From Treponematales bacterium (GTDB taxonomy: Bacteria > Spirochaetota > Spirochaetia > Treponematales > UBA12059): a stretch of DNA of 34,079 bases. Location of the stretch: positions 1 to 34,079 of the forward strand of contig JBGSKZ010000251.1 of NCBI GenBank assembly GCA_041741035.1, written 5' to 3'. Shown one piece after another: positions 1,419-25,957 of the stretch. Position numbers and translations under genes: made by a program. Every line of letters starts with the position of its first letter. Within the stretch, counting starts at the first letter, position 1. The notes under the pieces are model-generated. The model made no database searches. It was not told the DNA's origin and saw only the letters and a list, made by a program, of their open reading frames with translations.

Positions 1419-1611
1419 GTTCAGTAGCGTACACCATGCCTACTACTGTGTCTATTCGGGATGGGGGGCAGGCAAAGATGGACAGTCAAGTGGGCAAATT
1501 ATCCGTCCGTAGCCATGCTTATCTAGATATTGCATGTACTGACGGGCACTATTGCGCCAACCGTATGCCGGAATGTGCGCTATAATGGATATGGAGCTCG
1601 AGGAGGCAGCC

Positions 1612-2970
1612 ATGGCGCATAACACCATCAAATCGAGCTACGCGACCCTGACGGAACGGCTCAATCGCTTCCCGCAGGGCGCGCCGCCCTCAGACCTGCT
1701 GTTCGCCATACTAAGGCAGCTTTTCAGCGAGAAGGAGGCCGGCATGGTCTCCCTGCTGCCGATCAGGCCTTTTGACGCGGCTAGGGCCGCCGCCATCTGG
1801 CGGACGACGCCGGCCGAGGCAAAAAAGACGCTGGACGAACTGGCAAGCCGGGCGCTGCTCATCGACACCGAGCGCGAAGGAAATACGACCTATTGCCTCC
1901 CGCCGCCCATGGCCGGATTCTTCGAGTTCTCGATGATGCGCGTTAGGAGCGACCTGGATCAGAAGGCCCTGGCCGAAATGTTCTATCAATACATGAATGT
2001 GGAAGAAGACTTTATCAAGGCGCTGTTCACGGAGGGCCAGACCCAGCTCGGCCGGGTGTTCGTCCAGGAACCCATGCTGCCAAGGCGATCCGGCCCGCAG
2101 GATACGGCCGATAAAAAAGCGCCTGGGACGGTGCGCTTCACGAGCCTGGAACCTGCGCCCGGAGACCGTGACCTTCTGGTGCTCGATTACGAGCGCGCCA
2201 GCGAAGTTATCAAGACGGCCTCGCATATCGGCGTAGGCATGTGCTACTGCCGCCATAAGATGATGCACCTGGGCCGGGCCTGCGACGCGCCCATAGACAT
2301 CTGCATGACGTTTAATAGCTCCGCTGAATCGCTGACCAGGCACGGGCATGCACGCGCGATAAGCGTTGCCGAGTGCATGGCGCTGCTCGATACCGCGTAC
2401 GAGCGCGGGCTTGTGCAGTTCGGCGAAAACGTGCAGAGGCGCGTCAACTTCATCTGCAATTGCTGCGGCTGCTGCTGCGAGGCGCTTATCGCCCAGCGCC
2501 GCTTCGGCATGCTGCATCCGGTGCATACCACCAACTGGATACCGCAGGTTCTCGAGGAAAAATGCACCGGCTGCGGCAAGTGCGTCGATGCCTGCCCCGT
2601 CGAAGCGATGGCGCTGGTATCGGCTGAGGATCCCAAGCATCCGAAGCTGCGGAAAGCCAAGGTCCTTGATAACGCGTGCCTAGGCTGCGGCGTATGCGTA
2701 CGCGCCTGCAAGACCGGCGCGCTATCGCTTCGCGCGCGGCCCGGGCGCGTGCTTACGCCCGTCGATTCGACCCACCGCGCGGTGATCATGGCCATCGAGC
2801 GCGGGAAGCTTCAGAACCTGATCTTCGATAACGGCGCCCTGGCGAGCCACCGCGCCATGGCAGCCATACTGGGGGTTATCCTGCGCTTGCCGCCGATTAA
2901 ACAAGCTATGGCCAGCGAGCAGATGAAGAGCAAGTACCTGCTGAAGCTGCTGTCGCTCGTCAAGCCTTAG
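1612..2970 (+). CDS. cysteine-rich Fe-S protein with two 4Fe-4S ferredoxin-type motifs
   Basis: The frame is open from 1552. ATG 1612 is preferred because AGGAGG (1601-1606) lies 5 nt upstream and TATAAT sits at 1581-1586. Motifs: CTGCGKCVDACP, CLGCGVCVRACK, a CNCCGCCC cluster and CYCRHK..C..C. Stop TAG 2968-2970. Confidence 0.8.
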   Translation: MAHNTIKSSYATLTERLNRFPQGAPPSDLLFAILRQLFSEKEAGMVSLLPIRPFDAARAAAIWRTTPAEAKKTLDELASRALLIDTEREGNTTYCLPPPMAGFFEFSMMRVRSDLDQKALAEMFYQYMNVEEDFIKALFTEGQTQLGRVFVQEPMLPRRSGPQDTADKKAPGTVRFTSLEPAPGDRDLLVLDYERASEVIKTASHIGVGMCYCRHKMMHLGRACDAPIDICMTFNSSAESLTRHGHARAISVAECMALLDTAYERGLVQFGENVQRRVNFICNCCGCCCEALIAQRRFGMLHPVHTTNWIPQVLEEKCTGCGKCVDACPVEAMALVSAEDPKHPKLRKAKVLDNACLGCGVCVRACKTGALSLRARPGRVLTPVDSTHRAVIMAIERGKLQNLIFDNGALASHRAMAAILGVILRLPPIKQAMASEQMKSKYLLKLLSLVKP

Positions 2971-3038
2971 GCTCGGCCGTGAAGATCGGCTTAACCAACG
3001 CGGGCCAGCGCAGAGCATCATCTCTCTTATTAAGGTCC

Positions 3039-4292
3039 ATGGGCCGAATATCCGCGCGCGCCGCCCTCGGCGATCCCCTCGTACGGCTGGCGTCGGCTAT
3101 TCTCCAGCCCTACCGGGCCAATCAGGAACAGCGCGAGCTTGTCGCGAAGGGCTATGCCCAGCTATTCCCCGATTCAACGGAGCCGAGTGACCAGGCTAGG
3201 CGCATGCGGCGCAATCCCATAGGACAGGTGCGGAAGCTCGTTTTAGAGTGCACGACGCGCTGCAACTATTCCTGCAAGCATTGCTACAATTCCGGCGTGG
3301 AGCGCGTCACCGAGACGAGGCTCGATGCCCTATCGGCCGCCATCGATACCTTCGCCGGATTAGGGCTAAGGGAGTTCGCTTTCATAGGCGGCGAAGTAAG
3401 CAAGTATGGCGACGGTTGGCTGGGCTTGGCGCGGAAGGCGAGGGACTCGGGGGCGGCCATCGTGAGCGTGCTCAGTAACGGCTGGTTCCTTGGCGGGTCT
3501 GCCTTCGTGGCCGCCGGGCAGCGCTATGCCGATGATGGCGCGTACCTTCGGGAGCTAAAGGCGCACGGTATTACCCATATCTCCTTCAGCATCGATGGCC
3601 GCGGCCTAGCCCATGATGCGTCCCGCGGCATGCCAGGTTCGTATGCTCGTATACTCAAGGGCTTCGAAACGGTACTCGACGCCGGCCTTCAGCCTCGGGT
3701 TTCGCTCCTCGCGCGAAGCGGCAGCCGCGAAGGGGTACTCAGGCATTTCGAAGAGCTATCGATGCGCATGTACAGGAAGGATGCCGGCGCGGCCTCGCTG
3801 TTCTTCGACAATACCAACGCCATCAACGATTTCGTAGACCTTGGGAACCATGAAGAGCCCGAGGGCGGCCCTGCGGCAGAAGCCTTCGGCTACGCGCTAA
3901 GTGCGCTGCGCTGTCCCGGCTTTTATCGGCCGTCCCCGCAGCTCACCTTAAAGGCCAATGGCCAACTGGCCACCTGCCGCCTCGCCGACGCGGGCGAGGG
4001 CTACGGGAATATCCATGAGCGGCCGCTGCTTGATATCCTCAATAGCATGCACGACAGCTTTATATACCAGCTGCACGCCGAGCGGAGGATAGGCGATTAC
4101 CTTCGATTCGTAAACCCGCATATCTTCGGCAGCCGCTTCGCGCATCTATGCGCCCTCCGGGCCGTCTGCACGATGATAGCCCGCCGCATGCACGAGTGGG
4201 ACGTCGAGCCCGACGATGCCGCGGGCGTGGCGCGGATAAATAAAGAGGTGGCAGCCGTTACGGGTCGAATCATGGCTCCTTCCGCGTCTTGA
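3039..4292 (+). CDS. radical SAM protein
   Basis: CX3CX2C motif in LECTTRCNYSCKHCYN. The start is ambiguous: ATG 3039, or GTG 2979 (the ORF-track start), whose GTG overlaps an in-frame TGA of the upstream frame. Stop TGA 4290-4292. Confidence 0.8.
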   Translation: MGRISARAALGDPLVRLASAILQPYRANQEQRELVAKGYAQLFPDSTEPSDQARRMRRNPIGQVRKLVLECTTRCNYSCKHCYNSGVERVTETRLDALSAAIDTFAGLGLREFAFIGGEVSKYGDGWLGLARKARDSGAAIVSVLSNGWFLGGSAFVAAGQRYADDGAYLRELKAHGITHISFSIDGRGLAHDASRGMPGSYARILKGFETVLDAGLQPRVSLLARSGSREGVLRHFEELSMRMYRKDAGAASLFFDNTNAINDFVDLGNHEEPEGGPAAEAFGYALSALRCPGFYRPSPQLTLKANGQLATCRLADAGEGYGNIHERPLLDILNSMHDSFIYQLHAERRIGDYLRFVNPHIFGSRFAHLCALRAVCTMIARRMHEWDVEPDDAAGVARINKEVAAVTGRIMAPSAS

Positions 4293-4333
4293 AGCCTGCC
4301 CTGATTTGATAATTGCAGCTCTTCTGAAGTATA

Positions 4334-5977
4334 ATGATTACTATGATAGTCAAATTAAGAACGGGTTTTCGTACGCGTTTTTTGGGCTTAGCCCTCGCGT
4401 TGACGCTTGGAAGCTTCCATGCCTTTGGACAGGGCACCCAGGGACAGCCCTTCGCTATGGGTATTAACCTTGGCGGATTGGCCGATTGGGGCACGGAACT
4501 GCCTTTCGTGGACCTTATGAAAAACGCGCGGCAGTGGTATACCAAGGATCAGGGAAATCCCCGGGAGCCTTGGAACTCTGAACAAATCGGCGGCATTCGG
4601 CTACGGCCCGATGGCTACCCTCTGGAAATCCCCCAGATGGTATCAAGCGCCCAGTATCCCCAAGAGGTCGCGACCATATGGGCCGTGACCGATGGCTGGC
4701 CGCGGGGGACCTACGCCGTTTTATACGACGGCGAGGGCGAGCTTACCTTTTCCGGCTCTCCCCAGAGGGTTCAGGCGCTAAGCCCGGGCAAACTTACCTT
4801 CGATCTGCCGGAGCCCAAGGGCGGCCAGGTTGAAATGCGAATCCGCCGCTCGGCCAAGGCTGATCCGGTGCGAAATATTCGGGTTTTAATGCCGGGCTCC
4901 GAGCGTACTTACCTGGACCAGCCTTTTAATCCCCTGTGGATTCAAAAGGTGAGGGCCTTTGGCTCGGTACGCTTTATGGATTGGGGCAGTACCAACAGCT
5001 GGGGCCAGGCAGAGCCTTGGCAGTGGGAGGGCACGGTCCAGCTAGGCTGGGAGCAGCGGGCTAGGATGGATTACTACACCTGGGCAACGCCCAAGGGCAT
5101 ACCCTACGAGATGATGATCAGGCTCATGAACGACTATGACCTTGACGGCTGGGTGTGTATCCCCCATGTGGCCAATCCCGCCTATGCCGAGGAAATGGGG
5201 CGGCTGTTCGCGCGCGGCCTTGAGCCTGGCAGAGCCTTGACGGTGGAGTTCTCCAATGAGTTATGGAACTGGATGTTCGGCCAGACCCAGTGGCTAAACC
5301 GGTATGGCGACCAGGCCGAGCCTTGGCCCGAGCGGATAGTCCCGTATATCCAAACAGCCTTGGATTCCTTTACGAAGGGCTTCGGCGGCGCGTCCGCCAG
5401 GCTTAAGAGGGTGGTTGGCGTCCAAACCGCCTGGCTCGATGTGAGCCAGCGCATCGTCAGATCCATTGATCGCGCCAGCATAGACGCCGTCGCCCCGGCT
5501 TGGTATTTTGGCCTCAGCGAGGAGGCCGACGCGGCCTTGGATGCCTTGGGCCGCCGCGCCGCCGTTGGCGATATTGCCCGCCTCGTTAGGGCAAATTGGG
5601 AGGCCAATGAAAAACGCTGGATTAGCGATATCAGAGATCAGCTTGCGAGTCCCCTCAATCTGCCGCTGGCTTTTTATGAGGGTGGCCAGCATTTGACGGC
5701 GCATCCCTTTGGCGAAGAGCCAAGCTACGCCCAAGCTCTACTGGATATACAGCGGGCGCCTGAAATGCGGGCCTTGTATACTGAGTGGCTCACCTGGCTG
5801 TCCGGCCTGCAGAGTCCCCAGGACCCCCCGCTGGTCCTCATGCATTTTAGCCTGGTTGCGTCGCTGAGCGCCCGTTATGGAAGCTGGGGGCTCCTGGAAA
5901 CCCTAGACCAGGACCTGAAGCTTGTTCCGGCTCCGAAGTGGTCTGCCTTGGAACCCTACATCAAAAAGGTTCCTTGA
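4334..5977 (+). CDS. secreted protein, possibly a clan GH-A (TIM-barrel) glycoside-hydrolase-like enzyme
   Basis: 547-aa ORF 42 nt after the radical SAM stop. N-terminal signal peptide (KLRTGFRTRFLGLALALTLGSFHAFG-QG). An Asn-Glu motif in a beta-strand context (LTVEFSNELWNW) resembles the acid/base NE of clan GH-A. The function is inferred only. Confidence 0.65.
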   Translation: MITMIVKLRTGFRTRFLGLALALTLGSFHAFGQGTQGQPFAMGINLGGLADWGTELPFVDLMKNARQWYTKDQGNPREPWNSEQIGGIRLRPDGYPLEIPQMVSSAQYPQEVATIWAVTDGWPRGTYAVLYDGEGELTFSGSPQRVQALSPGKLTFDLPEPKGGQVEMRIRRSAKADPVRNIRVLMPGSERTYLDQPFNPLWIQKVRAFGSVRFMDWGSTNSWGQAEPWQWEGTVQLGWEQRARMDYYTWATPKGIPYEMMIRLMNDYDLDGWVCIPHVANPAYAEEMGRLFARGLEPGRALTVEFSNELWNWMFGQTQWLNRYGDQAEPWPERIVPYIQTALDSFTKGFGGASARLKRVVGVQTAWLDVSQRIVRSIDRASIDAVAPAWYFGLSEEADAALDALGRRAAVGDIARLVRANWEANEKRWISDIRDQLASPLNLPLAFYEGGQHLTAHPFGEEPSYAQALLDIQRAPEMRALYTEWLTWLSGLQSPQDPPLVLMHFSLVASLSARYGSWGLLETLDQDLKLVPAPKWSALEPYIKKVP

Positions 5978-5990
5978 GAGGACGGCTTAT

Positions 5991-6265
5991 TTATAGCTCT
6001 GCCGGCTCATCCTCGTAGCCAGCGCGGCCAAGCTTCTCAGTCCCTCCCCGCAGCACCTTCCTGACACCGCCGCGCGGATTGGCCACGTCTCCGGCGTAGC
6101 GCGGGATTACGTGCAGATGCAGATGGAAGACCGTCTGTCAAGCCGCCTCCCCTATATTGAAGCCCACGTTATAGCCATCGGGCGCGCGTGTCTTCTCGAT
6201 CGCGTTTCTGGCTATGTCCACCGCTACCATGAGCTCGGCCCGTTCTGCTGGCGTAGCGTCGAACA
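5991..6265 (-). pseudogene. 5'-truncated HIT-domain gene fragment, paralogous to the 3' end of 618..1418
   Basis: The nucleotide sequence roughly 6040-6262 is alignable by eye with roughly 640-905. It translates as QVFDATPAERAELMVAVDIARNAIEKTRAPDGYNVGFNIGEAA*QTVFHLHLHVIPRYAGD.... An in-frame TGA (6138-6140) replaces the Gly codon of GQTVFH. Homology stops abruptly at about 6265, where base composition changes. Confidence 0.75.
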
Positions 6266-6606
6266 CTTGTCATTCTTTAGCCAAAGTTCAAGCGCCCTAA
6301 TTCGATTTACCCTTGAGTATACGAACGACCTCCTGGCAACGATTCATGCCCAGGAAAACGTCCGCGCATTCAAAGCTGACGATGGGTGCCTTGTTAAATA
6401 TCATTGGCTTGCCTACTCTTGGTAAACGAGGTAAGCTAGTTGACCAAAATGGAAGTATCTTCCTCACATTACCTTGCCTTACCACAGGTATGTCAGTCGG
6501 AACTGCCGTTCAGGTTAATTGATTCCAATGCCGGGCATGTAGCCTGATCAGCGAAAAGAATATATGATACCAATCAGAGTGCAGCCATTACAGAACCTGG
6601 GGGCAA

Positions 6607-7308
6607 ATGATGGCAACTGCTGAAGTCCAAAAATCGATACTCCTGGTTGAGGACGACGCCATAGTTGCCATGTCAGAAAAAACGGCCCTTGAAGAATACG
6701 GATATGCCGTATGTACCGTGAATTCCGGTGAGAAGGCGATCCAGGCTTTCAAGGAAGCCAGCACTTTCGATCTGGTATTGATGGATATCAACCTGGGACA
6801 GGGTCTAGATGGAACGGAAACCGCGAAATTGATCCTGATGGATCAGGATATCCCTATAGTATTCCTGTCGAGCCACACAGGGCCTGAAACAGTTGAAAAA
6901 ACTGAGAAAATTACTTCTTACGGCTATGTAGTCAAAAACTCCTCCATTACTGTCCTGGATGCATCCATAAAGATGGTCTTCAAGCTATTCGGTGCAAAGA
7001 AGCAGATGGCCCAGGCGGCTGAGCAATTCAGGGCAATAGTCGAAAACACCTCTGATTGTATCGTCCGTTACAACCGGGAAGTACGACCTGTCTACGGTAA
7101 TCCATCGATACTTACAGCCTTGGGCATCTCCCTTGAACAGTTTGTGGGGAAGAGTCACCGCGAACTTGGCTTTCCCGAAAATTGGTGCCTGCTTTGGGAT
7201 ACTGCGATCGGTGGAGTGTTCCAGACCGGGATCCCAACAACGATAGAATCAGAGGTGGTGCTTGCCCGGGGAGAACTGATCAAGAAGCCTTTTGACCTGT
7301 ACATCTAG
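6607..7308 (+). CDS. response regulator receiver (REC) + PAS protein, ended by a TAG that is in frame with 7309..7542
   Basis: REC motifs: ILLVEDDAIV...DLVLMDINLGQGLDG...PIVFLSSH. PAS-like: FRAIVENTSDCIVRYNREVRPVYGNPSILTALGISLEQFVGKSH. TAG at 7306-7308. Confidence 0.75.
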   Translation: MMATAEVQKSILLVEDDAIVAMSEKTALEEYGYAVCTVNSGEKAIQAFKEASTFDLVLMDINLGQGLDGTETAKLILMDQDIPIVFLSSHTGPETVEKTEKITSYGYVVKNSSITVLDASIKMVFKLFGAKKQMAQAAEQFRAIVENTSDCIVRYNREVRPVYGNPSILTALGISLEQFVGKSHRELGFPENWCLLWDTAIGGVFQTGIPTTIESEVVLARGELIKKPFDLYI

Positions 7309-7542
7309 CCAGAGTATCGGGACAAATATTACCTGCACCGCAGGCAATTGTTCCTGACTGGCACCCTGCAGGACTGCGGATTGCACATGCGGCGGCAGGA
7401 CGGTAGCGCCTTTTTTGCAGTTCTGAGGGCAACCAGGGCAGAGGATGATGACGGCGAACCTGTATGCCTCGTGGTTGCGATGGAATTGGAGCACAATGAG
7501 CCAGGGAGAGCTGGATTCGGGGATGATAAGCCTGGAATTTAG
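7309..7542 (+). other. in-frame continuation of the REC-PAS ORF beyond the amber codon (PAS C-terminal-like segment)
   Basis: Same frame as 6607..7308 and open for 77 codons (PEYRDKYY...HMRRQDGSAFFAVLRATRAEDDDGEPVCLVVAMEL). It ends TAG 7540-7542, then GGA, then TGA 7546-7548, which overlaps ATG 7545. Confidence 0.5.
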
Positions 7543-7544
7543 GG

Positions 7545-8501
7545 ATGAAAAAGGAAAGGCGTACCATGAAAGAAGAAATCAAAGCCGATGAAGAGGCTAC
7601 GCCACCGGATGACAGCTTCCCGATAGTGGGCATCGGCGCATCGGCCGGGGGGCTGGCAGCTTTCGAAGCCTTCTTTTCAGGCCTGCCCGCCGAGCTTGAC
7701 CCCGGCATGGCCTTTATCCTGGTGCAACACCTGGCTCCGGATCACAAGAGCATCCTGACTGACCTTGTCAGGCGATATACACGGATGCAGGTCTTTGAGG
7801 TCGAAGACGGCATGAAGGTCCAGGTCAATTGTGCGTATATCATCCCGCCTGGCTATGACATGGCCTTCATCAACGGTTGCCTGCAATTGCTTGAGCCCAG
7901 CGCCCCCCATGGTCTGCGCCTGCCCATAGACTTCTTCTTTCGATCCCTGGCCCAGGACCAGCGGGAACGTTCTATCGGCATAGTGTTGTCCGGATCCGGC
8001 TCGGATGGCAGTCTCGGCGTGCGTTCGATCAAGGGAGAAGGTGGCATGGTGATGGCCCAGTGTCCGGAGAGTGCCGAGTATGACGGGATGCCCAGAAGTG
8101 CCATAGCCACCGGCATGGTTGATTTTGAATTGCCGCCCGCCGAGATGCCGGCTTCGTTGATGGCCTTCACTGCTCAAGCCTTCGGAAAAATATCAATGCA
8201 AAGCATGCCAACGAGTGAAAAATCGAATACCTTGAAGAAAATTTTCATCCTGCTTCGGGACGGGACTGGTCACGATTTTTCACAGTACAAGCCAAGCACC
8301 ATCCTGCGGCGGATCGAACGGCGCATGGCTGTACATCAGATCGCCAGTATACATGCATATGTCAGGTACCTGCAGCAGAACAAGCCTGAAATCGACGCGC
8401 TGTTCCGTGATCTGCTGATCGGTGTGACCAACTTCTTCCGCGATCCCGAAGCTTTTGCCGAGCTCGAGACGAAGATTATCCCGAAAATTTTCGAAGGTTA
8501 G
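7545..8501 (+). CDS. CheB-type methylesterase domain plus the N-terminal part of CheR; 5' portion of a CheB/CheR-PAS-histidine kinase gene split by an in-frame TAG
   Basis: CheB-like: FPIVGIGASAGGLAAFEAFF...ILVQHLAPDH...VLSGSGSDGSLG...EYDGMPRSAI. CheR N-domain: GHDFSQYKPSTILRRIERRM...NFFRDPEAF. TAG 8499-8501 is in the same frame as 8502..10817. Confidence 0.85.
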   Translation: MKKERRTMKEEIKADEEATPPDDSFPIVGIGASAGGLAAFEAFFSGLPAELDPGMAFILVQHLAPDHKSILTDLVRRYTRMQVFEVEDGMKVQVNCAYIIPPGYDMAFINGCLQLLEPSAPHGLRLPIDFFFRSLAQDQRERSIGIVLSGSGSDGSLGVRSIKGEGGMVMAQCPESAEYDGMPRSAIATGMVDFELPPAEMPASLMAFTAQAFGKISMQSMPTSEKSNTLKKIFILLRDGTGHDFSQYKPSTILRRIERRMAVHQIASIHAYVRYLQQNKPEIDALFRDLLIGVTNFFRDPEAFAELETKIIPKIFEG

Positions 8502-10817
8502 GAAGCAGGCTCAGTCATCCGTGTCTGGTCTTCCGGGTGTTCCACGGGGGAAGAAGCCTATTCCATCGCAATGCTCCTGGTAGAGGGCATGGAAAAAGCC
8601 AAACAAAAGTTTACCCTTCAGGTTTTTGCTACTGACATCGACTCCCAGGCCATAGCCGTTGCCAGGTCCGGGACCTATCCTGCGAGTATAGCGATGGACA
8701 TCACTGAGGAACGATTGTCCCGCTTTTTTACCCCGGAGCCTTCCATGCTGGATGAAAAACCCCTTTCGTACCGCATCAACAAGAGCATACGTGATTTACT
8801 GATCTTCTCGGAGCAGGACGTATTACGGGATCCTCCGTTCTCGAGGCTGGACCTCATCAGCTGCCGCAATCTCATGATATACCTGGACGGGGATTTGCAG
8901 AAGAAACTCATTCAGCGCTTCCACTATGCCTTGAATCCAGATGGCCTACTTTTTCTTGGTACCTCCGAAACAGTCGGTGAGTCTGCCGATCTCTTTGCAG
9001 TCCTGGACCGAAAGGCCAGGCTGTACCAACGCAAGAAGAATACTTCCAGTACCGGCAACTCGTTCCCCGGCGCTTATCTCGCAGCCCGCAAGACTCCGGA
9101 TGAGGTACGACCTGGTTATGTAGGAAAAAATATGAAAGCCGATAAAATTTCGTTGAAGGAACTTGCAGAACAGACGCTGTTGAAGAGGCTTGCGCCGTCA
9201 AGTGCCCTGGTGAACGGCCAGGGCGACATCTTCTACCTTCATGGCCGCACCGGCATGTACCTGGAGCCGCCTACTGGTGAAGTCGGTGCATACAATATTC
9301 TGAGCATGGCCCGGGAAGGCTTGACGAACGAGCTTGCTACGGCGCTTCGCAAGGCTGTCCATACCGGAGACATCGTCCGCTGTCCTGGGCTCCGGGTGAA
9401 GACAAATGCCCATTTTACACCAGTGGACCTGAGCATCTGCCCTGTCGGGAATGATTCCGGGGATTCCTCTTCCCCAGTCCTGTATCTGGTCCTGCTGCAG
9501 GAAGGGCAGGAGATCGAGACTGGGCATGATCAGGACCTTGCCTTGCAGACAGGCAGCCCGGAAGACAGCATCATCATTTCCCTGAAGCAGGAACTGAGGG
9601 CAAAGGAAGAATACCTGCAGAGTGCCAATGAAGAACTGGAGACTGCCAACGAGGAGCTTAAGTCATCCAATGAAGAAATGCAGTCAGTCAACGAGGAACT
9701 TCAATCCACCAATGAGGAGCTGGAAACCTCAAGGGAGGAATTGCAGTCGGTGAACGAGGAACTGGCAACGGTCAATACCGAACTTCAGAGCAAAGTGGCC
9801 GACCTGTCAATCATCAACAACGATATGAACAACCTCCTGTCTGGTACCGGCATAGCTACCGTCTTCGTCGACCATCAGATGTGTATCCTGCGCTATACAC
9901 CGACAGTAACCGTGATAATTAACCTGGTCAAAGGAGATGTCGGGCGTCCCATTCACCACTTTGTCAACAATCTGGTCGGTTACGAGACCATGATAGAAGA
10001 TATCCAGGCGGTGCTGGATACCCTGATCCCCAAAGAACTGGATGTGGTAACCATGCATGGAATCTGGTTCACCATGCGTATCCAGCCGTACCGCACGATA
10101 GATAACATCATCGAGGGTGCCGTGATCAACTTCGTGGATATCACCGATCGGAAACAGGCGGAAGACAAAGTGGGGCTCCTGCTTTCCGAGAAGGAACTCA
10201 TTCTCAGGGAAGTCAATCATCGCATCAAGAACAACATGTGCACCATGAAGGCCATGCTTGACCTGCAAGCCAGGGGCATGGCTGACAAGAAAGCCTCTGC
10301 CGCCCTGCTGGATGCCAGCAGCCGCATGCACAGCATGGAAATCCTGTATGACAAACTGTACCAGTCCAGCAACTTCTCGGAGCTATCGGTCAGGGAGTAC
10401 CTGTCCTTCCTGGTTGACGGGATTACGAGAAACTATTCAGGTGTACTGAATCTGACTGTTGTAAAACAATTTGACGATTTCATCCTTGATGCCGAGCGTT
10501 TACAGCCCCTGGGCATCATCATCAACGAACTGCTGACCAACGCGATGAAATACGCCTTTATAGGCAGGCCCAGTGGGGTGGTCAAGGTGGAAGCAGGTCT
10601 TGTTGGAGGCAGGGTTTCAGTGGCCGTCGCGGATGACGGCAAGGGCATGCCGGAATCCATCGATTTTGAAAATTCCACGGGCTTTGGCCTGATGCTTGTG
10701 CAAGGCTTGGCAATGCAGATAAAGGCAAGCACCCGGATAGAACGGGAGAAGGGAACCAGGATTAGCCTGGAGTTCGATCTGAACCACCCCGGGTTTACCG
10801 GAGACCGTATTATCTGA
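8502..10817 (+). CDS. CheR methyltransferase core, coiled coil, PAS and HisKA_2/HWE-type histidine kinase; 3' portion of the split CheB/CheR-PAS-HK gene
   Basis: Directly after the TAG the frame reads EAGSVIRVWSSGCSTGEEAYSIAMLL, the canonical CheR SAM-binding motif. The first ATG is at 8571 (the ORF-track start). Also present: an NEEL heptad coiled coil (about 9600-9800), a PAS segment, EVNHRIKNNM (HisKA_2 H-box) and an ATPase with DDGKGMP and GFGLMLV. Stop TGA 10815-10817. Confidence 0.85.
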   Translation, partial: EAGSVIRVWSSGCSTGEEAYSIAMLLVEGMEKAKQKFTLQVFATDIDSQAIAVARSGTYPASIAMDITEERLSRFFTPEPSMLDEKPLSYRINKSIRDLLIFSEQDVLRDPPFSRLDLISCRNLMIYLDGDLQKKLIQRFHYALNPDGLLFLGTSETVGESADLFAVLDRKARLYQRKKNTSSTGNSFPGAYLAARKTPDEVRPGYVGKNMKADKISLKELAEQTLLKRLAPSSALVNGQGDIFYLHGRTGMYLEPPTGEVGAYNILSMAREGLTNELATALRKAVHTGDIVRCPGLRVKTNAHFTPVDLSICPVGNDSGDSSSPVLYLVLLQEGQEIETGHDQDLALQTGSPEDSIIISLKQELRAKEEYLQSANEELETANEELKSSNEEMQSVNEELQSTNEELETSREELQSVNEELATVNTELQSKVADLSIINNDMNNLLSGTGIATVFVDHQMCILRYTPTVTVIINLVKGDVGRPIHHFVNNLVGYETMIEDIQAVLDTLIPKELDVVTMHGIWFTMRIQPYRTIDNIIEGAVINFVDITDRKQAEDKVGLLLSEKELILREVNHRIKNNMCTMKAMLDLQARGMADKKASAALLDASSRMHSMEILYDKLYQSSNFSELSVREYLSFLVDGITRNYSGVLNLTVVKQFDDFILDAERLQPLGIIINELLTNAMKYAFIGRPSGVVKVEAGLVGGRVSVAVADDGKGMPESIDFENSTGFGLMLVQGLAMQIKASTRIEREKGTRISLEFDLNHPGFTGDRII

Positions 10818-10861
10818 GAGGATACGGTTATGGAAAAGACAAACAGGTTTCCACAAGAGAT

Positions 10862-11219
10862 CAAAGATCGGCGGCTCCCCCGAAACGCTTAGGAGTTGGA
10901 TCCGCCAATGCGAACGATATCCTCAGACTGGCTTCAGCCGGAATCGATGGCGATGCCTACGGCAACGTGCTTGCTGAGACTATCAATGGGCTCTACAAGG
11001 CTGAAGTACTCCACCGCTTGGGACCTTGGAAAAACACAGCCGCAGTCGAAGCTGCTGCCCTGGACCGGGTCCACTGGTTCAATACCCGAAGGATTCTCGA
11101 GCCGATTGGGCACATTTCTCCATAAGATTATGAAGATATGTATGATACTGAACAGGCGGGCTTGCCCTTAGTGGCTGGACTCAAATGAACGAGTCTCCGG
11201 TTAAACCCGGGGCGGTTCA
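10862..11219 (+). mobile_element. 5'-truncated remnant of an IS3-family insertion sequence (transposase C-terminus plus right terminal inverted repeat)
   Basis: Frame 2 reads ...GIDGDAYGNVLAETINGLYKAEVLHRLGPWKNTAAVEAAALDRVHWFNTRRILEPIGHISP*DYEDMY..., the characteristic C-terminus of IS3-family OrfB (DDE/rve). It contains an in-frame TAA at 11123-11125. The element ends ...CCCGGGGCGGTTCA at 11219, the reverse complement of TGAACCGCCCCGGG, which matches my recollection of IS3-group termini. Confidence 0.7.
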
Positions 11220-11257
11220 CTCTTGGCATTATGATTGACGACCTCGATTCCGGGCGG

Positions 11258-12793
11258 CTACGAAGGGAGGGCAGAGCCTTCAGCCGGCAGGGAGAAATAA
11301 AAGGTGGCGCCTGCGCCTTCTTCTCCTTCAGCCCAGACTGTACCGCCATGGCGCCTGACTATCCTTTCGACAATTGACAGTCCGATACCGGTGCCGGCAA
11401 AATCGCTGGTGGAGTGGAGGCGCTGGAAAACGCCGAACAGCTTGTGTGCGTAAGCAGGATTGAATCCCACTCCGTTGTCCTGCACTGAAAAAATAGTGAA
11501 ATTGGCTTCGCAGAGGCCCTTGATGCTTATTCTGCGTTCACTCCTGGGCTTGGTGAACTTTACTGCGTTCATGATCAGATTTGTCCAGACTTGATACAGC
11601 AGCAGGCTGTCTCCATGAACGGCAGGCAATTCGTCCATGGTTATTTCAAGCTCCCCATCTGCTTCCGTTTCCGTAATCTTCTCGACAATCGATTTTACCA
11701 GGGCCTGCATGTCCACGACCTGCTTCCGGAAATCCGAGCGTGTGTACCTGGAAAGGGAAAGCAGGGCAGATATCAGGCTGCCCATATGCTGCACTCCCGC
11801 TCGGATTTCATCCAGGAATCCAAGGCCCTTGTCGCCCAGGATGCCAGAAAAATCTTCTGCAAGCATGGCCGAGTATCCATCTATGGTGCGCAGTGGAGCT
11901 CGAAGGTCATGTGAAACCGAATACGAGAAAGATTCCAGTTCTTTATTCGCATATTCAAGCTCTCTTGTCCGATCGGCTACCCGCTGTTCCAATTCAGAAT
12001 TGAGACGAAGGATTTCGTCCTCCGCCTGTTTTCGCTGTGTTATATCCCTGACATTGCATTGCATGATGTCCCGGTGGTTTACCCGGTAAACAGTTCGGAC
12101 GACTTCGACGGCAAGGCTTTTGCCTGCCTTGCTTGTCACATACTTGATGACGGTGGTGTTGTATATCTGGAAGTCATGAACAGGTTGATCCGGCAGTATG
12201 CAGGCAATGGCATCCTGTGAAGCAAGCTCAAATGTTTTCATGCCAAGATACTCATCAGGCGAGGTTTCAAGGAGCTTTGCCAAGGCGGGATTAATATCGA
12301 TGATCCTGTTGCTCTGGAGATCAATGATCAGTATGCCGTCCTGGGCGGTCTCGAAAAGTCGGCGGTACTTTATTTCAGACGCACGGAGGTTGTCCTCCCG
12401 CATTTCAAGATGGACCTTGATCCTGGATCTGACTACATCCGGATCAATAGGTTTAGCGATGAAATCGACAGCTCCGACTACGAATCCTTCCTGTTCGGTC
12501 GTGGTCCTGTCGGTGGCGGACATGAATATAACCGGTATGGTCGATCCTTCTTCATCCTGTTTGATCCTGCGGCAGGTCTCGAAGCCATCCATGCCGGGCA
12601 TGGAGATATCCAGGAGGATCAGGTCTGGATGAGGAGCGGCTCTTGCGATCTTCAGGCCTTCTTCTCCGCTGGTTGCGATCTTTATCCGGTAATCGGCCTT
12701 GAGCACTTCCTTGAGTACCACGATGGAATCGGGAACATCATCCACGATGAGTACGGTTTTTTTTAGCTCCGGCAATCCAGGTGACTTTCTCAT
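11258..12793 (-). CDS. REC-PAS-histidine kinase (HisKA + HATPase_c)
   Basis: REC: VLIVDDVPD...DLILLDISMPGMDGFE. PAS segment present. H-box: SFSYSVSHDLRAPLRTI. ATPase: NLIMNAVKFT, DNGVGF, GTGIGLSIV. Its ATG overlaps the upstream TAA by 1 nt (TAATG). Stop TAG 11258-11260. Confidence 0.9.
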   Translation of the reverse strand: MRKSPGLPELKKTVLIVDDVPDSIVVLKEVLKADYRIKIATSGEEGLKIARAAPHPDLILLDISMPGMDGFETCRRIKQDEEGSTIPVIFMSATDRTTTEQEGFVVGAVDFIAKPIDPDVVRSRIKVHLEMREDNLRASEIKYRRLFETAQDGILIIDLQSNRIIDINPALAKLLETSPDEYLGMKTFELASQDAIACILPDQPVHDFQIYNTTVIKYVTSKAGKSLAVEVVRTVYRVNHRDIMQCNVRDITQRKQAEDEILRLNSELEQRVADRTRELEYANKELESFSYSVSHDLRAPLRTIDGYSAMLAEDFSGILGDKGLGFLDEIRAGVQHMGSLISALLSLSRYTRSDFRKQVVDMQALVKSIVEKITETEADGELEITMDELPAVHGDSLLLYQVWTNLIMNAVKFTKPRSERRISIKGLCEANFTIFSVQDNGVGFNPAYAHKLFGVFQRLHSTSDFAGTGIGLSIVERIVRRHGGTVWAEGEEGAGATFYFSLPAEGSALPS

Positions 12794-13902
12794 TAGGCTT
12801 GTACACCCTGGTCATTGAATGACTTGACTATCTCCACAAACTGCGGGCAGATATCAATGAAGGCAGATAGCACTTCCGGGTCGAAATGGCTGCCGGATCC
12901 CTTGCGTATGATTTCCACTGCTTCTTCATGGGGGAAGGCGTCTTTGTAGACGCGCTTGCTTATGAGGGCGTCGTACACATCGGGTATGGCCATGAGCAGG
13001 GCGGGAATGGGGATATCAGCTCCGGAGCAGCCGCAGGGATAGCCGCTTCCATCCCACTTTTCGTGGTGGCTTCCGGCAATCTCCCGGGCAAAGTGCAGGA
13101 AGGTAACCGGGCAATCAAGACGTTTCTCCGCTGCGGCTATGGCAGCCTGTCCAAGGGTGGTATGGGTCTTCATTATATCGAATTCTTCTGGAGTGAGCTT
13201 GCCAGGTTTCATGAGGATGCTGTCCGGAATGCCCACTTTTCCGATGTCGTGCAACGGGGCGGATTTATACAGGAGTTCGATGTTCTCGTCTGTAAGGAAG
13301 TTCCTGAATCTCCTCTTGTCCCTCAGGCGGAGGGCAAGTGCCCGTACATAGTGCTGGGTACGGCGGATATGATTCCCCGTCTCGTTGTCCCGGGTCTCCG
13401 CCAGGGATCCAAGGGCAACCATAGTGACATCCTGGATCTGCTGGACTTCCATGGTTCGCCGGGCGACTTCCTTCTCCAGGTATTCATTCTTGTCCTTCAG
13501 GAAATCTCTGAGGGTTTTCAGGTGAAGGTGGTTCCTGATTCTGGCCTGCACGATTGCCGGGCTGAGGGGCTTGGTGATGTAGTCTTCTGCCCCCAGATCA
13601 AGCCCCTGCTGTTCATCCCTTTCCTCGTTCTTGGTGGTCAGGAATATTATTGGTATATCCGCCGTCCGCGGATCCTGCTTGAGCCTTCGGCATACTTCAT
13701 AGCCATCCATGCCCGGCATCATTACATCAAGAAGGATGAGATCAAGCTCGTCTCCACGCTGTGCGACTTCAAGAGCCATCTGGCCAGAGACCGCCACCTT
13801 TATCCTGTACGTATTCCGGAGCACTTCCTTAAGCAGAATAATGTTGTCGACGGTATCGTCGACAATAAGTATGGTGGCCTGTCTGTCAGAGTGGTTTCCC
13901 AT
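12793..13902 (-). CDS. response regulator with HD-GYP domain (predicted c-di-GMP phosphodiesterase, RpfG-like)
   Basis: REC: [10 protein letters not shown]...[20 protein letters not shown]: [10 protein letters not shown] and [11 protein letters not shown]. Start chosen at ATG 13900-13902 (MGNHSDRQ), preceded by AAAGGA; the ORF track extends to 13995 inside the upstream gene. Confidence 0.9.
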
Positions 13903-16870
13903 TGGCAAATCCTTTTCCGGTTGTATCTGGAGGGTCAAGGGTACTGATGATCTTTCTGGCCGCGGCAAAATTATAGGCTCCCAGGGCGGTTGCAAGCAGG
14001 ATTACCATTTCGGCGGAAAGTGACTTCTTTAGCTGGCTCTGGATGGAAACGAAGTAATCAACCGCCTCGCTGTCATTCTCTTCTATGAGGAACTTCAGCC
14101 TGGCGTACATCTCGGCCCCTGAAAGTAGCTGCCCGCTTTCCTGTGGTGTTTCCGCATCCGGTTCCTTCACTTCATGCAACGTTGATGTGATGGTGCTTAT
14201 AAGTGCGGTCAGCAGGGATGAGAGCTGGGCAAGGTGGCGGTTGGTTACGGTGGTGTCTTCCTTTGCAGCGATCGAAGTTTCAAGCAACTCCGCTACCTGC
14301 TGTACTTTCGTTGCGCCGATAGTACCCGCCACCCCCTTGAGCGTGTGGGCAGCCCGCTCGGCACTGTTCCGGTCGCCACTTTCCAGATGTCGCCTGATGG
14401 TATCGACCGCGGCTTCCTGGCCATCGACAAAGCGGCGGAGCAGGTCTATATACAGTTGCCTGTTCCCATTCACATGGGTGCGGCCGACCCCGGTATCTAT
14501 GCCCGCCATTCCTGGAAGCCAGGTGGATACGGTACCCGACGTTTGCTTCTCTTCCGACTGCCCTCCGAAGGACGAACCGGATTGGTAGAACTTCTCTAGC
14601 GTCTTGAACATGGTCGGGGGGTCGATAGGCTTGCTGATGTATCCGTTCATGCCGGCAAGCCTGGTCTTCTCCCGATCGGTATCCAGGACGTGGGCGGTCA
14701 TGGCGATGACCGGTAGGTCGGCAAAGCGCTCCTGTGCCCGTATCCGCCGCAGGGTTTCATAGCCGTCCATGCCAGGCATCTGTATATCCAGGAGGACGAT
14801 GTCGTAATGCGCTTCCGTATCTTCCAGCATATGTAGGGCTATCAAGCCAGATTCTGCTACATCGACCTTCACTCCCTCGCTGAAGAGCAATTCTGAGGCC
14901 ACTTGCTGGTTCATCGCATTATCTTCCACCAGCAGGACCCTGGCTCCTTCGAGTGTCTGCCCGGAGCTGCTGTCAGGCTTGAGCGTACCAGCAGCGGAAC
15001 CTGGCGAGGGTTTGAAAACATTTATGATCGCATCGAACAGCATCGAGCAGGTTATAGGCTTGAGCAGGAAGGAAGTGGCCCCGGCGTTTCTTGCGGCCTT
15101 GCGTTCCGCTTCTCCTTCACTCCAGCCGCTGAGCATTATGACCACAGGAATATTCTTCAGTTCGCCGCCGTGAATGATGCACTTTGTGGTTTCTATGCCA
15201 TCGATCCCGGGCATTATCCAGTCCATGAGGACAAGGTTGTAAGGATCCTGAGCATCGGCCTGCTTGACCAGGTCAATCGCCTGCTCGCCTGAGTCTGCAA
15301 CCTCTACCCTGAAGTGCTGGGCCAGCAGGATCTGCTGGATGAAGTTCCTTGTTATAAAATTATCATCAACTACAAGGATTCTCAAACCCTTCATGGTGGA
15401 TGGGAAGACAAGCTTGTGCTGGCTGTTCTGCGCTTCAAAACCGAAGCTGGCAGAAAAACTGAAGGTACTGCCTGCTCCTGGTTCGCTCCGTACCTGGATC
15501 CGGCCACCCATCATCCCTACCAGTTTCTTTACAATGCTCAGGCCAAGACCCGTGCCGCCATATCTTCGGGACATGGAGTTGTCGGCCTGGGAAAAGGGCT
15601 GGAACAGTTTGCCGAGTTGTTCCTCTGTCATGCCTATACCGGTATCCCTCACGGTAAAGAGGACCCTGACCGCAGTAGTGCTTTTTTCAAGGACTTCAAG
15701 CCGCAGTTCGATCTCGCCTTTTTCGGTGAACTTAACGCCGTTGCTGACAAGGTTTACCAGGATTTGCTGAAGCCGGTATGGATCCCCTACAAGATTCGAA
15801 GGCAGATCCGGTGGTACGGTAAGTATGAACTCCAGACCCTTGGCGTTCGCATTGACCGTAGTGAATGACACTACCGCGTCCAGCACGATGTCCATGGTAA
15901 AGGCTACTTGTTCAATAGTCAGGCGTCCTGCTTCTATCTTTGAAAAATCAAGGATATCGTTGATGGTGGCAAGCAGGGTCTTGCCCGCGAGATGAATCTT
16001 GTCGATATAATCCTTTTGCCTGGGCTCAAGGCTGGTTTTCAGGGCAAGGCTTGAAAAGCCGATCACCGCGTTCAGGGGTGTCCTGATCTCGTGGCTCATG
16101 GCGGCCAGGAAATCGCTCTTTGCGTTGTTTGCCTGTTCGGCACTGAGCCTGGCGGCCTCAAGCTCCTCGTTTGCTGCCTGTAACTGGCTTGTACGTTCAA
16201 GGACACGGTTTTCGAGTTCGGCATTGAGGATCCGGATTTCCTCGGCCGCGTGCTTGCGTTCGGCCATCTCAAGCCGTAATGCTTCCGTCCTGGTTCTTAC
16301 TAGTTCCTCCAAATGATCGTTCAGGGTCTCCAGTTCGCCTTCAGCTTCCATGAGTTCCTTGTTCCTCATAACGGCAGCCTCATACGATGAAAGGAGCAGG
16401 CTGAACAACTGGGAAGCTTTTACGGTAATGGTGTGCTTGCCGGCGGCAATTGGTACTTCAAGGGTAAGTTCCGTCCCGGGGATTGCCAGGTTTTTGGTAA
16501 TTCCGCCCGATAGTATCCGGGGCAGCAGTTCAACCAGGTACTGTTCATTGAAGGGTTTCGTTACATAGAAATCCGCACCGCATTCAAGACCGGCCAGTAC
16601 ATCTTCAGCCTCACCGAGGGAGGTAAGGAGTATCACCGGCACATCCCTGGTCTTTTCCCCGTCCTTGATCTGCCGACATAGCTCATACCCGCTCATTTCC
16701 GGCATTATGATATCGCTGATGACAAGGGATGGCAGGTGTTCCTCAAGCCGTGCCAGGGCTTCGGAGGCTCTGCCCGCTGATATGATACGGTATGGCATTT
16801 GTTCCAGTACATGCCGCAACAGTTCGAGCTGGGTGGGGCTGTCATCAACGATGAGTATTTCATGGTCCAT
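13886..16870 (-). CDS. hybrid sensor histidine kinase: REC, coiled coil, HisKA, HATPase_c, REC, REC, Hpt
   Basis: REC: [10 protein letters not shown]...[12 protein letters not shown]-box: [17 protein letters not shown]. ATPase: DTGIGM and [10 protein letters not shown]. Two further receivers: [19 protein letters not shown] and [20 protein letters not shown]. Hpt: [13 protein letters not shown]. Start taken at ATG 16868-16870 ([10 protein letters not shown]) after GGGAGG; the longer track ORF overlaps cheB. Confidence 0.9.
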
Positions 16871-17936
16871 GGAAGGCCTCCCGTGATTTTCCGGCAAGGG
16901 ATGAAAGCAGAGTGGCAATGCACTCCGGAGAAAGGATATACCTAGCTGCTTGGATTTTGTTTGCTTCTCCAGGCATACCATAGACCACCGAGCTTTTCTC
17001 ATCCTGGGCTATGGTGAGTGCGCCTGCTTCCTTCATGGCTTTCAGTTCGTCTGCGCCATCCCGCCCCATGCCGGTCAGCAGGACACCTGCTGCCTGGGAG
17101 CCAGACTCGATCAGAACGGATCGGAAGAGGTGCCCCACTGAAGGGCGTATCCCGTTATAGACAGCTGAATGTTCACATAATTGTATACGCATTCCGCCCT
17201 GGACTCCCAGATGGTAGCCGTCAGGGGCGACATAGGCACGGCCAGGTGAAATGGCTTGGCCTTGTGTGGCGATACGTACCGGAAAGCCTGATGCTCCGGA
17301 CAACCATTCTGCAAATCCCTGGACGAAGCCCTCCGCTATATGCTGGGCTATGAGTATGGGCAGGGGAAAATCATGCGCCAAACCGGAGAGCAGATTCTTA
17401 AGGGCAAGGGGACCGCCGGTGGAGGCGCCTATGGCAACGATCCTGATTCCGGAACTGGCTTCATACTCTTTCAGGGGCATTGTATGTCCTGGAATGCATC
17501 CCGGATCGCGTCGGGGGATCCTCCGTACGACTTTTATTTCAGACATCATCTTCACGGTGTGCAGCAGTTCTCTTGCCAGCGATCCGGATGATCCATCATG
17601 GAAACCAGGAGGACGCAGAACCACCGCGAGAGCCCCGGCTTCCAGGGCCTGGAAGGTGAAGGCAAGCTCTTCCATCACCGTGTTACCGCTGACTACCACA
17701 ATCGGGACGGGTGAAGTTTCCATTATACGGCGGGTTGCTTCCAGCCCGTCCATGACCGGCATGTTTATATCCATGGTCACGACCGATGGACGAAGCAGTC
17801 TGGCAGCCCGTACGGCTTCTTCTCCGTTATGGGCCAGTCCCGCGATCTCAAAATCCGGGTCGGATCTGAAGATATGCGCGAGGAATTCCCGGATGACCGG
17901 TGAATCTTCAACGATGAGGACCCTGATGGGCTTCAT
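16860..17936 (-). CDS. cheB: chemotaxis response regulator protein-glutamate methylesterase CheB (REC + methylesterase)
   Basis: REC: [12 protein letters not shown]...[12 protein letters not shown]. Esterase: [40 protein letters not shown]. Its ATG overlaps the cheA stop as ATGA. Confidence 0.9.
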
Positions 17937-18862
17937 AGCAACCTGCCGATGGTTTCAAGGAGGTTGCTCTGGTCAAAACTGCTTTTGACTATATAGGCAT
18001 CGGCACCAACCTCGATGCCCCGTTCAATATCATCCCGAGATTCCAGCGCCGTGACAAGGATGACCGGGATACCGGCCAGCCGCGGGTCGCCGCGGACCTT
18101 TGCACACAACTCGAATCCGCTCATGCGGGGCATGTCGACATCCGAGACAAGAAGGTCGAAATCTTCCGCCAGTGCCCTGGAATATGCTTCAACGCCATCG
18201 ACTGCGGTAGCTACCTGGTATCCGGCGGTCTGTAGCATGGTCCTCAGCAGGGAACGGGCGGTGATCGAGTCATCGGCCACCAGAATGTTCCTGACCTTCC
18301 CCTCTGGCTGTCCGGATCCCTGTTCCAGGGGTTTTAGTGGAGCAGTTCCTCTGCTTGCCTCGATCCTCACGGCCGACTGCATCAGCTCCGAGGTGTTGAG
18401 GATGGGTACTATCCTTCCGTCTTCGAGAAAGGCTGTTCCCGAGATGTTGCGTACCCGCTTCAGGAGGGGGCCCAGATTCTTCTGGATGATTTCCTGTTCG
18501 TCGATGAGTTCGTCTATCTGGAAGGCGACGCTGTGGTCGGCGGAGGACATGACCAGAACCAGCATGAATCCGTCGGCCTGTCCGGAGCCCTGCATGCCCT
18601 GCCCTCCCGGTCTGGCCAGCCTGGGCAGACCCAGGGCATCGGCCAGGGGCAGGAGTGCCATATCCTGTCCCTGCAGGCTGACCATCATGGAGGTTCCGAG
18701 GCTTCTGACCTCATGTGATGCTATCCTGGCTACGCGAGCCACGTTCCGGGTTGGAAGGATGAACTCCCTGTCCCCTGTACGGACCAGCATGCCCCGAAGG
18801 GTGGATACAGTCATTGGGACCTGGATGATGAAGGTGGTCCCGATCTGGGGCTGCGACTCCAC
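17933..18862 (-). CDS. cheA: CheA C-terminal portion (end of ATPase, CheW-like domain, C-terminal REC), separated from the N-terminal portion by a frameshift
   Basis: Upstream of the track start this frame reads GNITVESQPQIGTTFIIQVPMTVSTL (end of the CheA ATPase). A CheW-like regulatory domain follows, then REC (ILVADDSITARS...LLVSDVDMPRMSGFE). WspE-like architecture. Confidence 0.85.
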   Translation of the reverse strand: MESQPQIGTTFIIQVPMTVSTLRGMLVRTGDREFILPTRNVARVARIASHEVRSLGTSMMVSLQGQDMALLPLADALGLPRLARPGGQGMQGSGQADGFMLVLVMSSADHSVAFQIDELIDEQEIIQKNLGPLLKRVRNISGTAFLEDGRIVPILNTSELMQSAVRIEASRGTAPLKPLEQGSGQPEGKVRNILVADDSITARSLLRTMLQTAGYQVATAVDGVEAYSRALAEDFDLLVSDVDMPRMSGFELCAKVRGDPRLAGIPVILVTALESRDDIERGIEVGADAYIVKSSFDQSNLLETIGRLL

Positions 18863-18864
18863 TG

Positions 18865-20184: not shown

Positions 20185-20203
20185 CAGGTCTCCTCATACG
20201 ATC

Positions 20204-24817: not shown

Positions 24818-25029
24818 GGGATATCCTCCTCCGCTCACCTGCCATGATGGTCCAGCCACTATTTGGTGAAAGGACTGCTTCCCTCACGTTTTTCATTTTC
24901 TGTCTTGCTGATCAGTCCATATATAAGCATATGCCGTATCCCGGCAAAAGCAAGGGCAGCCATTGCAAGGGGGGAGGGGTGCGTCGAACCAGGGAGAAAT
25001 CCATCAGCCCACCCGGTGAAGCGCCTGGA

Positions 25030-25783: not shown

Positions 25784-25869
25784 AGTCCAGAATGTGCTAA
25801 TAAGCCTTGGCAGACAAACGAGCGTAACAAGAAGTACGAGCTTACGGTACATTGGTTAGAACTGAAATT

Positions 25870-25900: not shown

Positions 25901-25957
25901 TAGGTGATTACGGTTCCTGCGGCATGGCCCTCTTGCTTAGCATAGTATCCCTCGCTC

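Follow-up and report, generated by a model that had tools for sequence, protein, structure and literature searches.

We identified a CheB/CheR fusion sensor histidine kinase gene that is interrupted by one in-frame amber codon, and this TAG most probably reflects a genuine nonsense mutation of recent evolutionary origin. Our favoured reading is thus that of a young pseudogene, located in a variable accessory signalling locus under relaxed selection. The window, meaning the whole stretch of DNA that was analysed, comprises 34,079 nucleotides, and the host would be an uncultured spirochaete related to HGW-Spirochaetae-7.

The interrupted reading frame

Translation of positions 7545-10817 of the window gave a frame of 1,090 codons in which TAG 8499-8501 (+) is the single in-frame stop, the ORFs 7545..8501 and 8571..10817 sharing a common frame. 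The codons around the stop are ATT TTC GAA GGT TAG GAA GCA GGC TCA GTC ATC CGT GTC TGG TCT, continuing from TGG TCT with TCC GGG TGT TCC ACG GGG GAA GAA GCC, and the protein across it reads ...IIPKIFEG-stop-EAGSVIRVWSSGCSTGEEAYSIAMLLVEG... The features of the gene are as follows.

7545..8498, + strand: 5' part, 318 codons, encoding the CheB methylesterase and the CheR N-terminal all-alpha domain (Pfam PF01339, E=8e-55; PF03705, E=5e-17)
8499..8501, + strand: premature TAG, at a conserved Lys/Arg position in the loop preceding CheR strand beta-1
8502..10817, + strand: 3' part, 771 codons, fully open up to its natural stop TGA, encoding the CheR SAM-binding domain, a coiled coil, PAS_10, HisKA_2 and HATPase_c (Pfam)
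8571..8573, + strand: first in-frame ATG past the TAG, 23 codons downstream of the stop

The Pfam domains PF01339, PF03705 and PF01739 share one frame and are spread across both sides of the TAG, the CheR SAM-binding domain (PF01739) being matched after the stop from profile position 30. The C-terminal PAS_10, HisKA_2 and HATPase_c module is also present, and the ortholog in the syntenic contig L002 has the identical architecture. This domain order (CheB_methylest, CheR_N, CheR and PAS_10, to which HisKA_2 and HATPase_c may be added) is shared among CheB/CheR fusion sensor proteins, named 'two-component system CheB/CheR fusion protein', from which the window copy differs by its premature TAG, located after CheR_N and ahead of the SAM-binding domain and seen in 0 of 160 related loci. 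The gene belongs to the CheB/CheR fusion sensor histidine kinases in disrupted form, its otherwise uninterrupted coding sequence being broken by TAG 8499-8501.

When mapped on the CheR structures 5Y4R, 5XLY, 5FTW, 1AF7 and 1BC5, the TAG falls immediately ahead of beta-1 and SAM motif I. The stop precedes beta-1, the SAM loop and all later domains, so that an essential portion of the protein is missing, as in a pseudogene. Translation would end after residue 318, giving a fragment with the CheB methylesterase and the CheR N-domain; the methyltransferase fold would be lost, and the PAS-kinase module would be lost too unless translation restarts. A product from ATG 8571 is without beta-1 and the WSxGCSTGEE SAM loop. 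These results agree with a preliminary description made from the sequence alone, which had placed an amber codon inside a CheB/CheR-PAS-kinase gene just 5' of the CheR SAM motif (translation and Pfam), as the sole interruption between two same-frame ORFs and with the motif in the 23-codon gap before the first ATG (translation). It had also argued that initiation at 8571 would abolish the methyltransferase, which the mapping on solved CheR structures bears out.

Could the two pieces work as separate genes? A 318-aa CheB and CheR_N protein would then be made alongside a reinitiated 748-aa PAS-kinase from ATG 8571, with only the methyltransferase lost. The CheB catalytic domain is complete 5' of the stop and PAS_10, HisKA_2 and HATPase_c are complete 3' of it (Pfam), database gene calls give both pieces (311 and 748 aa), and CheB-CheR proteins of ~500 aa without a kinase occur among the homologs. 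However, the break lies inside the CheR fold, off any domain boundary, and thus does not correspond to a natural architecture, and none of the 160 loci contains a homolog broken at that codon. By inspection, moreover, no convincing ribosome-binding site is positioned 5-10 nt from 8571, the sole purine-rich stretch being ~17-26 nt upstream. We therefore consider a working split gene very unlikely. The exact 318-aa product of the 5' part was also called on the Logan contig L001.

The stop-site codon in relatives and the origin of the TAG

The codon at the stop site was AAG in 97 and AAA in 43 of the 160 related loci (140/160 together) and encoded Arg in 13, but it was never TAG, and no stop splits the gene at this codon in any of them. 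At the protein level, the aligned residue was K in 97/120 and R in 17/120 homologs. The preliminary description had proposed that a Lys at this position would fit a one-step mutation, and this is what we observed. Since related loci carry AAG, AAA or Arg codons and never TAG, a single A-to-T change explains the stop; the simplest route would be from AAG (Lys), which is the majority codon and also the one found in the syntenic ortholog of L002.

To what extent has the sequence beyond the stop decayed? The 3' part is 68% identical to the L002 ortholog, the alignment reaching residue 1079 of 1090, and the CheB-CheR part shows 75-76% identity to many homologs. Searches of reference genomes, a protein-guided scan of metagenomes and look-ups of 90% clusters returned no closer ortholog, and a metagenome scan for the exact 33-mer, the mutated base being set to N, gave 0 matches. 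The ratio of divergence after the stop to that before it was 0.95-0.99 against orthologs, compared with 0.92-0.98 among the orthologs themselves. Downstream of the TAG we detected neither a second lesion nor excess divergence, in a comparison that is insensitive as the nearest ortholog is only ~75% identical. The lack of extra divergence fits a very recent mutation, and it equally fits continued expression.

The window gene resembles ordinary single-nonsense pseudogenes in its one-step stop, which is not conserved in relatives, in having independent lesions nearby and in its location in a variable accessory locus. It differs from them in showing no detectable decay past the stop as yet, so that either the lesion is of very recent date or some use of the downstream part may persist. 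Two observations sit less easily with a nonsense mutation: the 771 codons past the stop are intact, and both in-gene stops of the window are TAG and lie in adjacent genes.

The CheB/CheR-kinase ortholog in L002, the nearest named relative, is itself frameshifted, and an unrelated homolog (L055) has its own in-frame TAG at a different site. P0125, with the contigs L084-L089, was discarded as a spurious 50-aa cluster.

We also considered that the TAG might have arisen as an error of sequencing, assembly or consensus calling, or be carried by only a minority of the population, the true gene of the organism being intact. The contig probably derives from a metagenome bin, since the Logan contigs of run SRR28170474 are only 2.8-4.3 kb long, and the contig of one relative (L083) shows several frame changes that may be assembly errors. 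In contrast, a Logan contig of run SRR28170474 is 100% identical over 6575..9404 of the window (2,830 bp), including TAG 8499-8501, and a second one (L082) is 100% identical over 4,266 bp that include a G-run in a neighbouring CheA gene; Logan is the output of a second assembler, although the run may not be independent of the deposited assembly. Substitution errors that create stops in two adjacent genes are, in addition, very unlikely. An artefact or minority allele is thus improbable.

Neighbouring lesions in a variable signalling block

The CheB/CheR-kinase gene forms an operon-like pair with an upstream gene that is likewise interrupted, and a further lesion was found on the minus strand.

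6607..7542, + strand: receiver-PAS (RR-PAS) gene, the upstream member of the operon-like pair (translation, alignment)
7306..7308, + strand: second in-gene TAG, in the RR-PAS gene, within the PAS motif F..FI-x-(P/E)ED.D.YY
18873..18876, - strand: 1-nt deletion in the HATPase_c domain of CheA, at a G4 run; G5 would restore ...ITALGGNITVES...
2973..31059, no strand: variable block of ~28 kb holding all signalling genes (blastn of L083 against the window)

The RR-PAS neighbour is common to L002, L003 and L004, and alignment to these syntenic genes revealed that the window copy also carries an in-frame deletion of ~85-90 aa through which PAS1 and PAS2 are fused. At the position of its TAG, the residue in homologs is T, D, L or C. 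The CheA deletion separates CheA (18865..20184) from its CheW-receiver part (17933..18862, both on the minus strand), and the G4 sequence is identical in L082. The same neighbourhood contains a truncated Fic duplicate. The preliminary description had reported no other lesion, which holds for the CheB/CheR-kinase gene and fails for the window, given the CheA deletion. It had also counted three interruptions of the TAG type. A six-frame scan for single stops between open stretches revealed no third in-gene TAG, just those at 7306 and 8499; the remaining TAG-flanked open stretches of the window are antisense to known genes.

The backbone segments that flank the block lie only ~2.8 kb apart in L083, a 90-93% identical relative, and L090 has different content downstream of an Fe-S gene, the content of the block varying between relatives that are 90-94% identical. 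Because the locus is variable, the CheB/CheR-kinase gene is absent from the close backbone relatives L083, L090 and L091. The signalling genes of this accessory block are gathering independent lesions, which makes a young pseudogene the best reading of the CheB/CheR-kinase gene. The stop, its absence from orthologs, the use of TAG as a terminator in this lineage, the lesions nearby and the variable context are shown by the data, whereas loss of function and relaxed selection are inferred.

These results bear mainly on annotation. The 311/318-aa and 748-aa calls need to be joined into a single entry marked as a disrupted CheB/CheR-PAS-kinase gene, and the neighbouring RR-PAS and CheA genes call for equivalent treatment.

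Possible translation of UAG and its use as a terminator

The preliminary description had left a choice between a recent nonsense mutation and decoding of TAG. If the TAG were translated, as pyrrolysine via pylTSBCD, by an amber-suppressor tRNA or through leaky termination, the full-length 1,090-aa and RR-PAS proteins would be made, perhaps conditionally. Several observations point in this direction. Both in-gene stops are TAG, the two genes are adjacent and co-oriented, and both frames remain open and conserved past their stops. One spirochaete genome is reported to encode PylRS (PMC9630628) and a tRNA-Pyl from a 'Spirochaetales bacterium' exists (PMC7615293), so that Pyl is not impossible in the phylum. 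In addition, the 100 nt 3' of each TAG fold somewhat better than the local background (GC-adjusted percentiles 7% and 3.7%).

This folding tendency, however, is common to homologs with AAG or AAA at the site (median percentile 0.16, with 30% at <=0.07). A PYLIS-like structure is not favoured, as the sense-codon homologs fold equally well, and the RNA structure downstream of the TAG appears from these comparisons to be a generic trait of the CheR coding sequence. A PYLIS-like element is also not known to be strictly needed for Pyl insertion.

In genes that use Pyl (mtmB, mtbB and mttB, with UAG read via tRNA-Pyl and PylRS), one expects orthologs to share the UAG at the same codon. The window gene resembles them in that a UAG lies within the frame of its otherwise conserved ORF. 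It differs in that its UAG is not conserved (0/160 loci), in that its downstream folding tendency recurs in copies without the UAG, and in that it is no methylamine methyltransferase. The 34-kb contig contains no tRNA(CUA), pyl-like gene or methylamine methyltransferase, the only tRNAs found being tRNA-Pro(CGG) and tRNA-Asp(GTC). As the introduction of PMC8629427 states, the bacterial stop reassignments known by then all concern UGA.

Genome-wide reassignment would, moreover, leave TAG rare or absent as a terminator. Instead, TAG terminates 6 of the 24 well-supported genes of the window. In the window as in L083, L090 and L091, the Fe-S backbone gene ends with TAG at the same residue and the sequence beyond is not conserved; ordinary genes in L002 end with TAG too. 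The frequency and conservation of TAG as a terminator in this lineage argue against decoding, as does the real decay nearby, namely the CheA frameshift, which is not a TAG, and the RR-PAS deletion. Consequently, we regard translation of the two stops as improbable. Even less probable would be a spirochaete whose Pyl or amber-suppressor system translates both UAGs, possibly conditionally, with read-through gating the signalling operon; if true, such UAG decoding, in a spirochaete and away from methylamine metabolism, would notably widen Pyl/suppressor biology. Between the two readings left by the preliminary description, a nonsense mutation is thus favoured by the prevalence of Lys codons at the site, the unaltered divergence past the stop and the nearby lesions, whereas decoding is disfavoured by the common, conserved use of TAG as a terminator.

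What looked in L002 like a chain of open frames separated by TAG proved to be a series of consecutive ordinary genes ending with TAG and a GC-rich spurious frame.

The identity of the two stops is compatible with chance. Among the one-step nonsense changes available in the two stopped genes, 47%-54% yield TAG, and the probability that 2/2 stops are TAG is p ~0.22-0.29 (~0.25). Same-type in-frame stops in adjacent genes can therefore mimic recoding where, as here, about half of the possible nonsense mutations produce TAG, and caution is warranted in a locus that carries other kinds of lesion as well.

An in-frame amber codon in the CheB/CheR gene

The gene encoding the CheB-CheR-PAS-histidine kinase protein (7545..10817, + strand) spans 1,090 codons, and its translation contains a sole stop, the TAG at 8499-8501 in the context ...GAA GGT TAG GAA GCA GGC... 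(...IIPKIFEG*EAGSVIRVWSSGCSTGEEAYSIAMLLVEG...). The listed ORFs 7545..8501 and 8571..10817 share one frame, and Pfam domains were found on both sides of the stop:

5' of TAG 8499-8501, + strand: CheB_methylest and CheR_N
3' of TAG 8499-8501, + strand: CheR SAM-binding domain, PAS_10, HisKA_2 and HATPase_c

The preliminary description of one TAG within a common frame, with no other lesion in the gene, was correct, and the observation is real. The window makes up an entire database contig, whose annotation divides the gene into products of 311 aa and 748 aa; a functional split gene is very unlikely. A Logan contig from run SRR28170474 matches the window at 100% identity over 6575..9404, and it encodes the same truncated CheB/CheR product of 318 aa. 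As this contig carries the same TAG, the base at 8499 is not peculiar to one assembler, which argues against an artefact or a minority allele, an explanation we regard as improbable.

Probable ancestral codon and age of the lesion

Of 120 protein homologs, 97 have Lys and 17 have Arg at the residue aligned to the TAG; Lys is one of the residues (Lys, Gln or Glu) named earlier as fitting a one-step mutation. Among 160 loci (80 each from reference genomes and metagenomes), the codon at this site is AAG in 97, AAA in 43, an Arg codon in 13 and another in a few, and TAG in none. Thus, a single A-to-T change, from AAG to TAG, accounts for the stop. When the protein is aligned with CheR proteins of solved structure (5Y4R, 5XLY, 5FTW, 1AF7 and 1BC5), the stop falls in the loop immediately preceding strand beta-1 and the WSxGCSxGEE SAM loop. 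The stop would remove the entire methyltransferase fold, and a product restarted at ATG 8571 would be without beta-1 and the SAM loop, as the claim that such a restart destroys the methyltransferase had anticipated.

Relative to the syntenic orthologs on three spirochaetal contigs (L002, from Spirochaetae bacterium HGW-Spirochaetae-7, L003 and L004), the ratio of identity after the stop to that before it is 0.95-0.99, and 0.92-0.98 between these orthologs themselves, a weak test given that the nearest is only ~75% identical. No second lesion was found in the 771 codons downstream of the TAG. The lack of both excess divergence and a second lesion suggests that the mutation is recent or that the downstream part is still in use.

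In the L002 ortholog (10001-13245) the frame shifts at about 11503-11566, within the linker that joins the CheR and PAS-kinase parts and near a AAAAAGGG run; either this gene is likewise disrupted or the MAG contains an indel error. An unrelated homolog in a Desulfobacterales MAG (L055) carries an in-frame TAG (6134-6136) elsewhere in the gene, at the position of residue 93 of the window protein, which is Gln; this is the only in-frame stop among the 160 related loci. Sporadic lesions do arise in this family in metagenome-derived sequences.

TAG as a terminator or a decoded codon

A second in-frame TAG (7306-7308) interrupts the receiver-PAS gene directly upstream (RR-PAS, 6607..7542, + strand). 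It falls in the PAS motif F..FI-x-(P/E)ED.D.YY, at a position that is T, D, L or C in homologs. RR-PAS also terminates naturally in TAG (7540-7542), and a TGA follows one codon further on. Three TAG interruptions had been counted in this block; we found no third in-gene TAG in the window, leaving only 7306-7308 and 8499-8501. Since TAG makes up 47-54% of the one-step routes to a stop in the two genes (TAA 32-38%, TGA 14%), two TAGs out of two would be expected by chance with p ~0.22-0.29.

TAG terminates 6 of the 24 well-supported window genes, usually with a further stop a few codons on. The backbone Fe-S gene (1552..2970) terminates in TAG at one and the same residue in the window and in three contigs of close relatives (L090, L083 and L091), and the sequence past it is unconserved. 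Ordinary L002 genes, for example thioesterase-like and TsaC/Sua5-like, also end in TAG. The 34,079 bp of the window contain no pyl-like gene, and the only tRNAs there are tRNA-Pro(CGG) and tRNA-Asp(GTC). PMC9630628 reports PylRS genes from 81 bacterial genomes, including a single spirochaete, which makes Pyl conceivable in this phylum, and a tRNA-Pyl of a 'Spirochaetales bacterium' has served in experiments (PMC7615293). According to the introduction of PMC8629427, the bacterial stop reassignments then known all involve UGA; in-frame stops of pseudogenes can mimic reassignment (PMC8629427). Given the ordinary use of TAG as a terminator and the chance expectation, we consider it improbable that UAG is decoded here.

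The 100 nt 3' of each TAG fold somewhat better than the local background (GC-adjusted percentiles 7% and 3.7%). The same region in 80 sense-codon homologs folds alike (median percentile 0.16; 30% at or below 0.07), so the folding is probably a by-product of encoding the CheR motif rather than a TAG-specific signal.

Neighbouring lesions and the variable block

RR-PAS also has an in-frame deletion of ~85-90 aa relative to the syntenic genes of L002, L003 and L004, so that the N-terminal half of PAS1 runs directly into the C-terminal half of PAS2. Other lesions involve the following features:

17933-20184, - strand: CheA gene (Hpt, HATPase_c, CheW, receiver)
27551..28741, + strand: Fic/DOC gene
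30282..30743, + strand: 153-aa ORF that duplicates the C-terminal third of the Fic/DOC gene in truncated form

A 1-nt deletion shifts the CheA frame inside HATPase_c: the run at 18873-18876 is GGGG, and a fifth G (GGGGG) would bring back ...ITALGGNITVES...; a Logan contig (L082) has the same sequence at this run. The duplicate is 80% (aa) and 92% (DNA) identical to the C-terminal part of the full Fic/DOC gene and is missing the Fic catalytic part.

The Fe-S gene product shares 94% identity with a JGI protein and 90% with a protein of 'Spirochaetae bacterium HGW-Spirochaetae-7', with further matches in MAGs of Spirochaetes, Treponemataceae and Rectinemataceae. The best syntenic CheB/CheR orthologs (L002, L003 and L004) are likewise spirochaetal, each with a related RR-PAS gene directly upstream. 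The relatives' contigs L083 and L090 have only the window ends in common: L083 matches 1559-2972 (89.5%) and 31060-32582 (93.4%), spaced by ~2.8 kb versus ~28 kb in the window, and L090 carries the NUDIX-HIT and Fe-S genes, beyond which its content is unrelated. Both contigs lack the ~28-kb block 2973-31059, which holds all of the signalling genes, or have other content in its place, so these genes lie in a variable, accessory block. Situated downstream of the Fe-S gene, this block resembles a variable island or a hotspot of rearrangement.

Of the two options first proposed, TAG decoding is disfavoured by the ordinary terminator role of TAG, and a nonsense mutation is favoured by the putative AAG ancestor and the lesions nearby. 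We therefore consider it likely that a recent nonsense mutation struck an accessory signalling locus that is gathering lesions of several kinds.

A direct-repeat family has two tandem copies at 26780-27208 and one at 32964-33201, the latter adjoining tRNA-Pro (33156-33229) and overlapping its 3' part. The arrangement is reminiscent of an element that integrated at a tRNA gene and duplicated its attachment site, but no integrase was seen. The ORF 26732..27250, lying on the repeats, is probably not a gene. The ORF 33392..34060 (- strand) has no match in Pfam or NCBIfam, and GC content at 33001-34079 is ~66%, compared with ~55% for the window. L083 shows frame changes in its - strand regions 3300-4520 and 7400-8800 (one in an S41 peptidase, two in a hydrogenase-like gene), which may reflect assembly errors or a more widespread pseudogene load across this lineage. 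Just upstream of RR-PAS, L002 (~8600-8680) and L003 (~1150-1200) carry short tandem repeats whose translation in one frame gives LTHS or HLTSP units.
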